Positions 3,953 to 8,716 of a DNA stretch of 36,271 bases are shown one piece after another. Origin of the DNA: an uncultured Thermoanaerobaculia bacterium (lineage in GTDB: Bacteria; Acidobacteriota; Thermoanaerobaculia; Multivoradales; DATKCC01); NCBI GenBank assembly GCA_964539125.1, contig CAZIIB010000002.1, positions 1-36,271 of the forward strand, given 5' to 3'. The position numbers and the translations under genes were made by a program. A model generated the notes under the pieces. That model was not told the origin of the DNA and did not search any database. It saw only the letters and a list, made by a program, of their open reading frames with translations. Positions within the stretch are counted from its first letter, which is position 1. The number at the start of each line of letters is the position of its first letter.

Positions 3953-6900
3953 CTCCTGGGGAGCAGCGTCCTCGAGGGCGACGACACCGACTGGACTCCC
4001 GAGGACCTCGACCTCGAGGTCCTCGCGGGTCTCGACAGCGAGGATCAGCGGGAGCGCCTGGAGCGCTATCTCCGGGACCTGGTGGCCGCGGCCCTCAGGG
4101 TGCCGCGGCGCCAGCTCGACGTCGATCGCCCCCTGGACGGCCTGGGCGTGGACTCGCTGAGGGCGATCGAGCTGAGCCACCGGATCGAGACGGACCTGGG
4201 CGTCGCGGTCTCCATGATGCCGTTCGTCCAGGGGTTGTCCATCGCCGAGATCGCGGCCCTGGCCCTGCGCGAGATGGCGGAGCCCGCGACCGGCGCGCGC
4301 GCCCTCGCCCCGCGCCCCGGCGAGCCGGCCCGCGAGCACCGGCTCTCCTACGGCCAGGAAGCGCTCTGGTTCATCCAGCGCCTGGCGCCGGAGAGCTCCC
4401 ACTACAACATCGCGGCCGCGGCCCGCATCACCGCCCGGCTCGAGCTCCCGGCCTTCGAGCGGGCGCTCCAGGGCCTGGCGGATCGCCATCCCTGCCTGCG
4501 GACCACGTTCAGCGCCCCCCACGGCAAGCCGCTCCAGAAGGTGGCCGAGCACCTGGACCTCCGTCCCCAGGTCACGGAGGCGGCGGACTGGAGCGAGGCG
4601 CTCCTGGCCCGTCGGATGGCCGACGCGGCCTATCGTCCCTTCGACCTCCAGGAGGGACCCCTGCTGCGCCTCGTCCTGTTCCGGAGATCGGACCGGGAGC
4701 ACGTGGCCGTCCTGGCGGTGCACCACATCGTGGCGGACTTCTGGTCCCTGACCGTGCTGCTCGACGAGCTGGGCCGCTCCTACGCGGCCGAGCTCGCCGG
4801 CCGGCCGCCGGCCCTCGAGCCGTTGCCGCTCCAGTATGCCGACTTCGTGGCGTGGCAGGCGGCGACCCTGGCGGAGCCCCGGAGCGAAGCGCACTGGCAG
4901 TACTGGCGGACCCAGCTCGCCGCCCCCCTGGCCGAGGTGGACCTGCCGTCGGACCGGCCCCGCCCGGCGCGCCAGACCTACCACGGAGCGTCCCTGGGCC
5001 TGGCCCTCGGGCCGGATCGCACGGCGTCACTCGAGGCGCTGGCCGCGGCGCACCGGGCGACGCTCTTCAGCGTCCTGCTCACCAGCTTCCAGGTGCTCCT
5101 GCACCGCTACACCGGCCAGGACGACGTGGTGGTGGGCTCGCCCATGTCGGGGCGGCCCCGGGCGGCGTTCGCAGGCATCGTGGGCTATTTCGTGAACCCG
5201 GTGGTCCTGCGCTCGGACCTGGCCGGCGACCCGGCCTTCCAGGATCTCCTGGGCCGCACCCGGCAAACGGTGCTCGAGGCGCTCGAGCACCAGGACTACC
5301 CCTTCGCCCTGCTGGTCGAGCGCTTGCAGCCGGCGCGGGATCCGAGCCGCTCACCCCTCTTCCAGGTGATGTTCATCTTGCAGCAGGCGCATCAGCCCGC
5401 GCTCGAGGGCCTCTCGCCCTTCGCCCTGGGCGAGACCGGCGAGCGCCTCGACCTCTGGGGCCTGCCCCTGGAGTCCATGGCGCTCGAGCGCCGGATGACA
5501 CCCTTCGACCTCACGCTGACCATGGCGCGGGCCCGGGACGGCTTGAAGGCGTTCTTCGAGTACAACGGCGACCTGTTCGACGCCGACTCGATCGCCCGCA
5601 TGGCGGAGCACTTCCGCAACCTGGTGGACTCGGTGCTCGAGGATCCCGCGCGACGCCTCTCGCTCCTGGAGCTGATGGGGGAGGCCGAGCGCCGACAAGT
5701 GCTCCGGGAGTGGAACGAGACGCGGGTCGGCCTGCCGCGGGCGAAGTGTGCTCACCAGCGGATCGAGTCTCAGGTTCGGCGGATCCCGGACGCCGTCGCC
5801 CTGGTCTTCGGCAGCCGGGCCCTGACCTTCCGGGGGCTCGACCGGCGGGCCAACCAGCTCGCCCGCCACCTCGGGGCTCGAGGGGTCGGGCCGGGCGACC
5901 TGGTCGGAATCTACCTGGAGCGGTCTCCCGAGATGGTGATCGCCATGCTCGGCACCCTGAAGGCGGGGGCCGCCTACGTGCCCCTCGATCCGGCCTACCC
6001 CCGGCAGCGGACGGCGTTCATGCTGGAGGACTCTCGCGCCGGCACGGTGCTGACCCGGCAGGGCCTGGCGGCGGCGCTCGGCGACGGGCCGTGGGCCCTC
6101 GTCCGCCTGGACGCGGATTGGCCGGAGATCGGCCGCCAGCCCGGCTCGCGCGCGGCCGCCGGCGCGGGCGGGGACGACCTGGCCTACGTCATCTACACCT
6201 CGGGCTCCACCGGCGAGCCCAAGGGCGTGATGGTCCGCCACCGCGCCGTCGTCAACTTCTTCCGCGGGATGGACCGCGCCGTCGGGTGCGACCGCGCCGA
6301 CGGTCTCCTGGCCGTCACCAGCATGTGCTTCGACATCTCGGTCCTGGAGCTCCTCTGGACCCTGAGCGGCGGCGCCCGGGTGGTCTTGACGTCCGAGCGG
6401 GCGAGCCGAGGCACCCCGGCCCGCCGGCGTCGGCCCCGGCGGAGCGGGCCTCCCGGCTTCAGCCTGTTCTACTTCGCCAACGCCGATCCGGGCGCCGAGT
6501 CGGACAAGTACCGGTTGCTCCTCGAGGGAGCCAAGCTCGCCGACGACTGCGGCTTCGAGGCGGTCTGGACTCCCGAGCGCCACTTCCACGCCTTCGGCGG
6601 CCTGTACCCCAGCCCTTCGGTGATCGGCGGCGCCCTGGCCGCGATCACTCGAAGGGTGGAGATCCGCGCCGGCAGCGTGGTGCTGCCCCTTCACGATCCC
6701 ATCCGGGTCGCCGAGGAGTGGTCGGTGCTGGACAACCTGTCCGGGGGCCGGGTCGGCGTCTCCTTCGCCTCGGGCTGGCACGTCAACGACTTCGCCCTCG
6801 CCCCCGACCGGTGGGAGGACCGCAAGGGGTTCATGTACCGGGCGATCGAGACCGTCCAGCGCCTCTGGCACGGAGAGTCGATCCGGGTGCGCAACGGCGC

Positions 6901-8716: not shown

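Follow-up and report, generated by a model that had tools for sequence, protein, structure and literature searches.

In the textbook view, a MOx-interrupted glycine A domain serves to form a terminal amide; this view derives from few, largely unreconstituted cases, among them MtaG and MelG of myxothiazol and melithiazol biosynthesis. These modules have a C-A-MOx-A-PCP-TE architecture in which a luciferase-like monooxygenase (LLM) separates motif a4 from motif a5 in the glycine A domain and is proposed to hydroxylate the C-alpha of the N-acylated glycine; they are terminal and carry a TE, and what they release is a primary amide of the upstream chain. Further MOx-interrupted glycine A domains from lipopeptide clusters, that of FshJ (fischerazoles) and the corallorazine-like A2 domains, are regarded by their authors as putatively chain-terminating or chain-truncating. 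The proposed chemistry resembles that of the PHM and PAL pair: an N-acyl glycine is hydroxylated at C-alpha, after which a lyase may split it to the amide and glyoxylate (PMC9396620).

A second kind of precedent is SolF of solanimycin biosynthesis in Dickeya solani. This glycine module lies inside the assembly line, has a flavin monooxygenase embedded in it, and is acylated upstream and extended downstream (PMC10204066). Solanimycin B retains alpha-hydroxyglycine, hydroxylated and unhydroxylated chains are both extended, and stable acyclic or macrocyclic alpha-hydroxyglycine is also known from spergualin and skyllamycin (PMC10204066). In the same work the PKS-embedded LLM type is stated, in general terms, to hydroxylate alpha to the carrier-bound thioester (PMC10204066). 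More broadly, the assembly-line LLM members, including the PKS-embedded FMO/LLM domains, MtaG/MelG, OnnC and the palmerolide LLM, have been described as hydroxylases acting alpha to a thioester or carbonyl. PuwE of the puwainaphycin pathway is itself an alpha-hydroxylase, and PuwE-type domains, also present in microginin and ralsolamycin types, occur in FAAL-primed lipopeptide lines. Finally, the myxoglucamide (mxg) pathway, a FAAL-primed myxobacterial glycolipopeptide pathway, combines a FAAL-ACP-C-Ox protein and a Glu-activating module with a separate C-MOx didomain protein, the FMN monooxygenase MxgE, to which alpha-hydroxylation and ketone formation have been assigned (PMC13638107).

Against this background we analysed a stretch of 36,271 nucleotides from an uncultured Thermoanaerobaculia bacterium (hereafter the window), in which a MOx-interrupted glycine A domain occupies a non-terminal position ahead of several PKS genes. 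Its features are as follows.

2228..8716, forward strand: gene A, FAAL-ACP-C-A(MOx)-PCP, 2162 aa in a single ORF (Pfam and NCBIfam matches)
2273..3955, forward strand: FAAL (fatty acyl-AMP ligase) domain, aa 16-576 (PF00501 at aa 16-414, PF23024 at aa 458-576)
4040..4267, forward strand: ACP, aa ~605-680 (PP-binding in two stretches; ACP_SdgA_C at aa 605-680)
4340..5701, forward strand: condensation (C) domain, aa 705-1158 (PF00668, 356 bits, profile positions 6-455 of 456)
5753..6400, forward strand: N-terminal part of the A domain, A1-A4 (Pfam, motifs, LgrA A-domain alignment)
6401..6457, forward strand: Arg/Pro-rich linker ASRGTPARRRRPRRSGPPG into the insert (sequence read directly)
6458..7477, forward strand: MOx domain, predicted FMN-dependent luciferase-like monooxygenase, aa 1411-1750 (TIGR04020, PF00296)
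7478..7522, forward strand: Gly/Ala-rich linker back to the A domain (sequence read directly)
7523..8332, forward strand: C-terminal part of the A domain, A5-A10 (Pfam, motifs, LgrA alignment)
8387..8581, forward strand: PCP, aa 2054-2118 (PF00550; motif FFDLGGHS)
8713..13386, forward strand: gene B, KS-AT-KR-ACP, 1557 aa, the module predicted to accept the PCP cargo of gene A (Pfam)
13379..16270, forward strand: gene C, KS, AT fragment and ACP (Pfam; KS triad intact)
16267..21753, forward strand: gene D, KS-AT-KR-carrier with an unrecognised C-terminal domain of ~230 aa (domain search)
22657..23955, forward strand: GT4 family glycosyltransferase (PF00534, PF13439)
24029..29704, forward strand: gene G, KS-AT-KR-DH-ACP (Pfam; KS triad intact)
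29701..30897, forward strand: zinc-ADH-type enoyl reductase-like protein (domain search)
32777..33706, forward strand: sulfotransferase (Sulfotransfer_4, E 4.7e-07)
33719..35188, reverse strand: FAD-dependent halogenase (PF04820, E 1e-28)

The reading frame of gene A is unbroken, with no frameshift across 2228..8716. Its FAAL domain scores 513 bits with the subfamily model PRK05850, which is below the whole-protein cut-off of 775, and 467 bits with that of FadD32; the ACP carries the serine motif LGVDSL at aa 639, and the C domain the active-site motif HHIVAD at aa 832. With a FAAL, a carrier serine and a C domain with the HHxxxD motif within one protein, the FAAL-ACP-C arrangement of lipoinitiation is present, and on the basis of its domain order gene A is a lipoinitiation unit combined with the first, predicted glycine, extension module. 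The protein ends 44 aa beyond the PCP with no fused TE, and domain searches detected no TE anywhere in the window. Its nearest protein relatives share at most 58% identity with it among the matches listed. Looking up gene A for exact matches gave none; of the window's genes, just the GT4 gene was found, on a Logan contig of 3.2 kb from SRR9700627.

According to the initial annotation, A4 and A5 are separated by an LLM fold, for which a search with family models was named as the check. Such a search bears this out: the model TIGR04020 ('MupA/Atu3671 family FMN-dependent luciferase-like monooxygenase', curated cut-off 244 bits) covers the insert with its positions 1-340 of 341 and scores 520.6 bits (E 1.7e-156), and PF00296 matches at aa 1413-1725. 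It is flanked exactly by the A4 motif FDIS (aa 1368, nt 6329) and the A5 motif NMYGPTE (aa 1827, nt 7706), both of which lie precisely where they were first read; the bounds proposed for the insert, 6449-7462, were right as to location, while the profile places its ends 9-15 nt away. The best solved-structure match is the monooxygenase domain of PuwE (PDB 6KET, 418 bits, near-gapless over 339 residues), at ~60% identity as estimated from the alignment. The LLM fold and the TIGR04020 family are thus common to both; however, PuwE-type domains lie in a PKS/aminotransferase module before a C domain, where their target is a fatty or polyketide carbon, whereas the gene A MOx lies inside an A domain. 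In a neighbour-joining tree of MOx domains, the PKS-embedded versions (L003, L007, L024, L068, L079 and L082) cluster apart from the A-embedded ones. A match on a Nostoc flagelliforme plasmid (H7/L082), considered as an A-MOx module before a PKS, was set aside as its MOx is PKS-embedded and upstream of a C domain. Searching proteins with just the MOx gave stand-alone LLMs of 350-420 aa, which were uninformative as to architecture.

All columns that are invariant in ten aligned A(MOx) junctions are present in the gene A MOx, which is itself one of the ten rows. Because these columns are all shared and the family model is matched from end to end, with a score that exceeds the cut-off more than twofold, inactivity of the domain is unlikely as judged from its sequence. 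This weighs on a reading in which the MOx acts in some other manner than a single hydroxylation of every chain, being partly skipped with mixed products, oxidizing twice to an N-acyl-oxamoyl unit, or being inactive. Solanimycin A does arise through skipping of the oxygenase (PMC10204066), and MxgE has been assigned an oxidation to the ketone on top of alpha-hydroxylation (PMC13638107), but the sequence carries no sign of a second oxidation, and we regard this set of outcomes as very unlikely. Within the window no flavin reductase was recognized, and domain searches found neither an alpha-KG dioxygenase domain nor a PHM/PAL-type copper monooxygenase domain. PHM, unlike the gene A MOx, is an unrelated copper enzyme using free peptides.

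With the insert removed in silico, residues 3-490 of 492 of the A domain align to both LgrA A domains at ~351 bits each, an end-to-end alignment which indicates that the A core is intact. The A3 (LAYVIYTSGSTG at aa 1318), A5, A7, A8 and A10 motifs are all present in the split domain, the later ones including GELFIGG at aa 1877, YRTGD at aa 1915 and PNGKLDR at ~aa 2022. Motif anchoring returns the specificity code DILQMGMIWK, identical to the one read previously and of glycine type, from which activation of glycine is predicted. It is near-identical to the generally reported MOX-glycine code DILQLGMIWK, which PMC12283262 gives for each of its four MOX-bearing glycine A domains, the single difference falling at a variable position; further, its first nine positions represent the commonest reading among MOx-interrupted A domains (32 of 79). 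The code was validated against this published one and the 79 homologues, the LgrA glycine A domain having an atypical code that was uninformative as a reference. As in MtaG and MelG, therefore, the insert is at a4/a5 of an intact A core with a glycine code, and the expected chemistry, C-alpha hydroxylation of an N-acylated glycine, is the one proposed there; what differs is that no TE follows the PCP.

Indeed, unlike MtaG and MelG, the gene A module is a first extension module with a fused FAAL-ACP-C and a coupled KS gene. It had been read as non-terminal, placed after FAAL-ACP-C and before a KS, and this arrangement is confirmed by the FAAL-ACP-C in the same protein and by gene B, the ATG of which (8713) overlaps the gene A stop as ATGA. 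Pfam matches on the containing ORF place the KS of gene B at 8752-9882, the AT at 10321-11151, the KR at 12202-12798 and the ACP at 13090-13278, and the KS triad is intact, with Cys in TGCSTS and His in both EAHGTAT and NLGHLD. In gene C, the AT comprises just 113 residues by Pfam and is missing the GHSxG motif, and no reductive domains were found by Pfam. Neither the domain at the C terminus of gene D nor the 300-aa gene that follows has a Pfam or PDB match, and they show no similarity to each other. An MFS transporter is also encoded in the cluster. Myxoglucamide was considered as the identity of this cluster and rejected, as mxg relies on Glu and has its C-MOx in a protein of its own, while gene A has a Gly code and its MOx inside the A domain.

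With respect to the other described modules, neither FshJ nor the corallorazine-like A2 feeds a KS, unlike gene A. SolF comes closer in its organization: in gene A, too, the glycine module is non-terminal and encloses a predicted flavin monooxygenase, and it has an acyl donor before it and chain extension after it. However, the SolF insert is at a8/a9 with a C domain next, as opposed to a4/a5 with a KS next in gene A, and its acyl donor is a PKS-made hexaene, as opposed to a FAAL-loaded fatty acid.

The initial annotation had taken the mid-line placement of such a module to be exceptional, a view which the wider distribution of these modules does not support. We sampled the 80 genome loci nearest to the A4-MOx-A5 junction, out of more than 600 matching stretches, using a junction alignment, as the patterns from a single protein query were too generic and mostly picked up A domains without an insert or MOx domains embedded in a PKS. 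Among the 70 readable loci, A(MOx)-PCP leads into a KS in 33 and into a C domain in 12, with a TE of the MtaG type in only 6, which suggests that the MtaG arrangement is a minority among the sampled genomes; in the best 120 protein matches, the insertion is at a4/a5 in 119 and a TE-sized tail is present in about 7. The A(MOx)-PCP-KS clusters are spread over more than 10 phyla. In the MOx tree, domains preceding a TE, a KS or a C domain are intermixed, and the gene A MOx is equally distant from all three (51-64% identity). This intermixing implies that the chemistry of the MOx is probably the same irrespective of what lies downstream, the outcome being determined by the follow-on domain. Additionally, two verrucomicrobial loci share the same C-A-PCP-C-A(Gly)-PCP-KS-AT layout, one with the MOx (L151) and one without it (L005), their KS domains being 67% identical; such a presence-absence difference fits the MOx as an optional tailoring step.

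A FAAL-C-A(MOx)-PCP design occurs in ten of the 80 loci, including those of cultured Archangium, Myxococcus and Corallococcus strains. In architectural terms gene A belongs to a coherent subfamily, FAAL-ACP-C-A(MOx)-PCP / KS-AT-KR-ACP / KS-AT-ACP, often with a glycosyltransferase, which has members in the cultured myxobacteria Archangium lansingense (MIWBW, L162) and Myxococcus sp. CA023 and, in an Acidobacteriales genome (59-55, L103), a minimal version of four genes, the last of them a stand-alone TE. Across the loci as a whole, GT4 enzymes are present in about 6 of 85, by estimate roughly the chance level for a common family, with enrichment in the FAAL subfamily; their co-occurrence was accordingly dropped as a hint of hemiaminal O-glycosylation.

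We consider it about an even bet (a probability of roughly 0.5) that the MOx hydroxylates the C-alpha of N-fatty-acyl-glycyl-S-PCP and that the resulting carbinolamide passes to the KS, to yield ultimately an N-acyl hemiaminal glycolipid. Gene A would then start a lipid-amino-polyketide assembly line, in which the FAAL transfers a fatty acid, activated as its adenylate, to the ACP, the split A domain puts glycine on the PCP, and the C domain condenses both to N-fatty-acyl-glycyl-S-PCP. We infer that the MOx, using reduced flavin from a reductase that would be encoded elsewhere, acts after this N-acylation and on the glycine C-alpha, the only carbon alpha to the thioester; such a site, which had also been proposed previously, is supported by analogy with the assembly-line LLM relatives described as alpha-hydroxylases. 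The N-acyl-alpha-hydroxyglycyl thioester would survive uncleaved and be moved to the KS of the translationally coupled gene B, which would add malonate and then ketoreduce. The resulting acyl-NH-CH(OH)-CH(OH)-CH2-CO- unit would be lengthened by the remaining PKS modules and decorated by the glycosyltransferase, and possibly by the sulfotransferase and halogenase. Comparable N-acyl aminals, acyl-NH-CH(OR)-CH(OR')-CH2- from PKS-extended glycine, are found in pederin and the mycalamides, although those systems are trans-AT and have separate oxygenases. Further, the stability of peptidyl-alpha-hydroxyglycine at neutral pH is such that a separate lyase (PAL) is required for peptide amidation.

The principal competing reading is that hydroxylation is immediately followed by C-N cleavage on the line, so that a primary fatty amide leaves and glyoxylyl-S-PCP becomes the starter for the KS. 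Cleavage is the accepted reading of MtaG and MelG, the only named a4/a5 MOx modules, and has been proposed for FshJ, and by analogy these cases count against a carried hydroxyglycine. It is also the simplest release for stand-alone relatives with neither a TE nor a downstream module, namely L084 (ACP-C-A(MOx)-PCP) and L092 and L155 (both FAAL-C-A(MOx)-PCP, accompanied in L092 by a GT4 and a UDP-glucose dehydrogenase), and in L084 and L092, whose MOx domains fall in the same clade as that of gene A (64% identical in L084), it appears the most obvious one. Moreover, since the a4/a5 MOx modules that feed a KS are without a known product, the onward passage of the hydroxyglycyl unit in gene A is extrapolated from SolF, with its a8/a9 insert and following C domain. 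On the other hand, glyoxylyl-S-PCP could arise without the ~1160 aa of FAAL-ACP-C, since a hydroxylated free glycyl-S-PCP would lose ammonia. In the 80 loci, however, A(MOx) nearly always has an N-acylating domain before it: 25 have a formyltransferase there and about 45 a C domain, while 2 have no such domain. That an N-acyl donor persists, even though a glyoxylyl unit could form from free glycyl-S-PCP, speaks for an N-acyl part that is important to the product. In the large formyltransferase family (FT-A(MOx)-PCP-KS), cleavage would release formamide, which is without evident use and not a plausible product. Additionally, a carbinolamide survives extension in solanimycin (PMC10204066), and a glyoxylate-primed polyketide was not found in the literature searched. 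Hence, on-line cleavage in gene A seems to us unlikely. In the KS tree, the domains that follow A(MOx)-PCP mingle with those that follow a plain A-PCP, which fits a peptidyl-type donor, but carrier recognition could yield an equal pattern. As such, the KS phylogeny does not separate an N-acyl-aminoacyl from a glyoxylyl substrate.

The initial annotation had held neither a hydroxyglycyl unit carried into extension nor a shed amide with a glyoxylyl starter to have a described precedent. The former does have one in SolF, albeit at a8/a9 and before a C domain, while for the latter none was found in the literature searched. A generalization of the cleavage reading, whereby an N-acyl cap (fatty acyl or formyl), glycine and MOx constitute a general protease-free device that sheds the cap as a primary amide and leaves an aldehyde-bearing glyoxylyl-S-PCP as a PKS/NRPS starter, strikes us as improbable; if true, the A(MOx)-PCP-KS clusters of more than 10 phyla would make glyoxylate-primed polyketides, and the role of the stand-alone FAAL-ACP-C-A(MOx)-PCP genes would be the dedicated synthesis of primary fatty amides.

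A third reading shares the carriage of the hydroxyglycyl unit with the preferred one but adds a programmed late fragmentation, in which the N-acyl hemiaminal collapses after release or export to a fatty amide and an aldehyde-terminated glycosylated polyketide. Such a self-immolative cap would be analogous in purpose to N-acyl-D-Asn prodrug caps. Carbinolamides are generally known from the PHM/PAL system to split to amide and aldehyde under base or through a lyase, solanimycin has been called unstable by its authors (PMC10204066), and the cluster has a transporter and decorating enzymes (MFS, GT4 and sulfotransferase) of the sort often seen in prodrug-type clusters. However, domain searches recognized no lyase or PAL-like gene within the window, and this purely inferential reading is in our view doubtful.

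The gene A module is thus best seen, by analogy with these systems, as a variant of a known device and not as something unprecedented, with SolF as the precedent for a hydroxyglycine that is carried onward. Judged from the sampled loci, the MOx-split glycine module in the middle of an assembly line is common in bacterial genomes: in most of the sampled MOx modules the product goes on to a KS or a C domain, which suggests that the terminal-amide picture covers a minority of them. If the hydroxyglycyl unit is kept, as in the reading we prefer, these lines would make N-acyl hemiaminals, the reactive motif of the pederin family, spergualin and solanimycin; if it is cleaved, they would make glyoxylyl starters and primary amides. 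The cultured myxobacterial carriers, along with the minimal acidobacterial version, make this kept-or-cleaved question directly testable.

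The window (about 72% G+C) is almost wholly occupied by a single biosynthetic gene cluster on the plus strand, with the following features:

37-2226, plus strand: PEP-utilising protein (PPDK_N plus mobile domain), ending 2 nt ahead of gene A; may extend past the window start
2228-8716, plus strand: gene A, 2162 aa, with the Pfam order FAAL, ACP, C, A N-part, LLM, A C-part, PCP
6329, plus strand: A4 motif FDIS of gene A
6458-7477 (aa 1411-1750), plus strand: LLM insert of gene A, NCBIfam TIGR04020 (MupA/Atu3671 family FMN-dependent luciferase-like monooxygenase)
7706, plus strand: A5 motif NMYGPTE of gene A
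from ATG 8713, plus strand: gene B, KS-AT-KR-ACP, KS Cys/His/His triad intact
13379-16270, plus strand: gene C, KS, AT fragment, ACP
plus strand: gene D, KS-AT-KR-carrier and an unrecognised tail of ~230 aa (21040-21753)
21750-22652, plus strand: 300-aa gene with only a faint nucleotidyltransferase match (E 0.026)
after the 300-aa gene: GT4 glycosyltransferase
after the GT4 gene: gene G, KS-AT-KR-DH-ACP
other genes: zinc-ADH-type reductase, HXXEE protein, MFS transporter, Sulfotransfer_4 protein
33719-35188, minus strand: FAD-dependent halogenase (Trp_halogenase family, E 1e-28), at the cluster edge

The insertion of the monooxygenase (MOx) in the A domain of gene A is confirmed as real, far beyond chance. 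In an NCBIfam profile search, TIGR04020 matches the insert with 520.6 bits (cut-off 244), covering profile positions 1-340 of 341, and this full-length LLM has all the columns that are invariant in A1, an alignment of ten A(MOx) junctions in which the window is one row. Its linkers are Arg/Pro-rich at one end and Gly/Ala-rich at the other, and the A domain from which it has been removed in silico can be aligned over its full length with solved A domains (~351 bits per LgrA A domain). Among solved structures, the PuwE monooxygenase domain (PDB 6KET) is nearest to the insert, with a match almost without gaps over 339 residues (418 bits) and an estimated identity of roughly 60%. Further, the catalytic motifs are all present in the FAAL, ACP, C, A and PCP domains, as well as in the downstream KS domains. 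These results bear out the initial annotation, which had placed an LLM fold between FDIS and NMYGPTE at the positions where we find them, directly after FAAL-ACP-C and directly ahead of a KS. The ATG of gene B overlaps the stop of gene A (ATGA), translationally coupling gene A to the KS gene. A long plus-strand ORF overlapping gene A in another frame (4852-13386) was rejected as an artefact of the 72% G+C, as are many long minus-strand ORFs.

The specificity code, read by anchoring on FDxS, xTPS, xxGGEA, NxYGPTExxIW and GKxDR, is DILQMGMIWK. In a 2025 survey, 4/4 MOX-bearing glycine A domains shared DILQLGMIWK, and glycine codes were reported to vary at three positions, one of which is position 299 (PMC12283262). 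Among the 79 MOx-interrupted A domains that we extracted, DILQMGMIW is the commonest code (32), followed by DILQLGMIW (19). On account of both its closeness to the published code and its frequency among homologues, the gene A domain is well supported as a predicted glycine-activating domain, as the glycine-type code read initially had suggested. The module as a whole can be regarded, on good foundation, as a putative hydroxylating glycine module.

The initial annotation had further implied that internal placement of such a module lacks a described precedent; this is wrong in genomes and, in part, in the literature. A protein search with A(MOx)-PCP recovered relatives in the thousands, none more than 58% identical. 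The a4/a5 insertion is present in 119 of the best 120 matches, among which are 47 C-A(MOx)-PCP proteins terminating at the PCP, about 34 with a ~500-aa extension N-terminal to A(MOx)-PCP, in many cases containing a formyltransferase (PF00551/PF02911, Pfam), and only about 7 with a TE-sized tail. Genomes were additionally scanned with A1, one per species, and the best 80 of at least 600 matches were used, with their domains mapped by tblastn, for which the domains of the window itself served as the reference; these loci are those closest to the window and hence a biased sample rather than a general census. All 80 carry the a4/a5 insertion, and their hosts span Acidobacteriota, Chloroflexota, Cyanobacteria, Myxococcota, Actinomycetota, Bacteroidota, Planctomycetota, Gemmatimonadota, Verrucomicrobiota and several proteobacterial classes. 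Upstream of A(MOx) lies a formyltransferase at 25 loci, a C domain at about 45 and neither at 2. Downstream of the PCP, at the 70 readable loci, we found a KS in 33, a C domain in 12, a TE in only 6, an immediately adjacent GT4 gene in 1 and, in 18, no recognisable feature over the next 1.5 kb. Since at least two of these 18 (L098 and L089) have a KS farther on, 33 is a minimum for the KS.

In the literature, the a4/a5 MOx of MtaG and MelG is described as a terminal amide-forming device, whereas the gene A module is internal and wired to a KS. An a4/a5 MOx has also been put forward for corallorazine-like clusters and for FshJ (fischerazoles), the latter proposal being speculative according to its own authors. 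The main precedent, absent from the initial annotation, is SolF of solanimycin, a glycine module in an internal position with a flavin monooxygenase embedded in it, which is acylated upstream with a hexaene made by a PKS and precedes more NRPS and PKS extension; its insert is at a8/a9, unlike that of MtaG (PMC10204066). The alpha-hydroxyglycine is kept in solanimycin B and absent from solanimycin A, so the downstream domain takes both hydroxylated and unhydroxylated chains; stable alpha-hydroxyglycine is also listed for spergualin and skyllamycin (PMC10204066). This LLM family is found at either insertion site, as a Pyrinomonadaceae locus (L002, about 4326-7150) has the order An-Ac-MOx-PCP, with the MOx in the a8/a9 or post-A position that SolF is reported to have. 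In the literature searched, mostly without subscription journals, we found no description of an a4/a5 MOx glycine module feeding a KS and no characterised product for the cluster family containing that of the window.

The FAAL-(ACP)-C-A(MOx)-PCP design recurs at ten loci. It is followed by a KS in L086 (Blastocatellia), L090, L098 (Myxococcus sp. CA023), L103 and L162, by a C domain in L097, L104 (Actinomadura chokoriensis) and L141 (Corallococcus praedator), and by no further module in L092 and L155. L103 (Acidobacteriales 59-55) is a compact set of four genes, namely gene A, KS-AT-KR-ACP, KS-AT-ACP and a stand-alone TE, and L162 (Archangium lansingense) and the metagenomic L085 have the gene A-B-C order plus a glycosyltransferase. 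In the KS phylogeny, the KS domains following gene A in the window, L085, L086, L103 and L162 form a single clade. The shared design, gene order and KS clade therefore place the window's gene A, as judged from these comparisons, in a conserved cluster family rather than mark it as a one-off fusion.

The AT of gene C was detected over only ~113 residues and has no GHSxG motif, so this predicted module must either depend on loading in trans or leave the chain unextended; the L103 counterpart has a full AT. The carrier of gene D has an NRPS-type motif (DNFFDLGGHSLL) despite its PKS module setting, and its tail has no match in Pfam or PDB and no similarity to the 300-aa protein that follows. In place of the PEP-utilising gene, L103 has an APH-type phosphotransferase. 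An ORF overlapping the halogenase (33767-35197, plus strand) lacks a family match and is probably spurious. No TE was found anywhere in the window.

In the proposed mechanism, MOx would draw on FMNH2 and O2 to place a hydroxyl group on the alpha carbon of the thioester, which would be the glycine C-alpha, as this is the sole such carbon in N-acyl-glycyl-S-PCP. This would come after N-acylation, since hydroxylated free glycyl-S-PCP would be a carbinolamine, which would lose ammonia and could not accept the acyl group. The intact N-acyl-alpha-hydroxyglycyl unit would then move to the KS of gene B, giving acyl-NH-CH(OH)-CH(OH)-CH2-CO- after that module; in compounds of the pederin family, this unit is the N-acyl aminal core.

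We assign a probability of about one half to transfer of the whole unit to the KS, a possibility that solanimycin illustrates. Transfer is also favoured by the stability of N-acyl-alpha-hydroxyglycines, which at neutral pH is high enough for animals to require a lyase dedicated to their cleavage (PAL). Following the MtaG paradigm, the fatty amide could instead be shed on-line, leaving glyoxylyl-S-PCP as the starter, and the closest relatives of the window's MOx do include stand-alone modules lacking a release domain (L084, L092), for which C-N cleavage is the obvious release. However, an N-acylating domain precedes A(MOx) at nearly all 80 loci and would be needless for a mere glyoxylyl unit, and the formyl family would release formamide, an implausible product; shedding thus appears unlikely, and both points favour whole-unit transfer. 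Additionally, the MOx domains found before a TE, KS or C domain are interspersed in the tree and lie equally far from that of the window, suggesting that the oxygenase chemistry is probably the same everywhere, with context setting the outcome, which again favours transfer. So does a pair of verrucomicrobial loci (L151 and L005), both C-A-PCP-C-A(Gly)-PCP-KS-AT with KS domains 67% identical, only one of which has a MOx, as would fit an optional tailoring step. Late fragmentation of a carried-through hemiaminal is about as unlikely as shedding, and an oxidation that is skipped, double or absent is less likely still.

The relatives offer further contexts. The stand-alone (FAAL)-ACP-C-A(MOx)-PCP genes (L084 5414-10300, L092 about 5489-12016, L155 about 5819-12388) have neither a TE nor a downstream module and may function as synthases of primary fatty amides or of glycosylated N-acyl-hydroxyglycines. 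L092 has a GT4 and a UDP-glucose dehydrogenase downstream and a MacB-type exporter upstream; within 10 kb of the L084 gene are a GT4 and a Sulfotransfer_4 gene, both of which the window shares. A large and compact family in Planctomycetota, Proteobacteria, Bacteroidota and Acidobacteriota (L108, L109, L127, L129, L140 from Rhodopirellula maiorica SM1, L142, L149, L150, L159 and others) couples formyltransferase-A(MOx)-PCP to KS-AT-KR-DH-ACP-TE, with KS domains in their own clade. We found no characterised product for it; the architecture implies a putative N-formyl-(hydroxy)glycine-primed diketide. In Cyanobacteria, L089, with a Gly-MOx module, and L044, with a Thr module (code DFWNIGMVH), have downstream proteins that are 77-85% identical.

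MOx glycine modules as such were already known; the one here has its MOx at a4/a5, is linked to a KS and belongs to a cluster family that is widespread. In these KS-linked modules the hydroxyglycyl unit may be either retained or cleaved; they occur in cultured myxobacteria and, in minimal form, in the L103 cluster.
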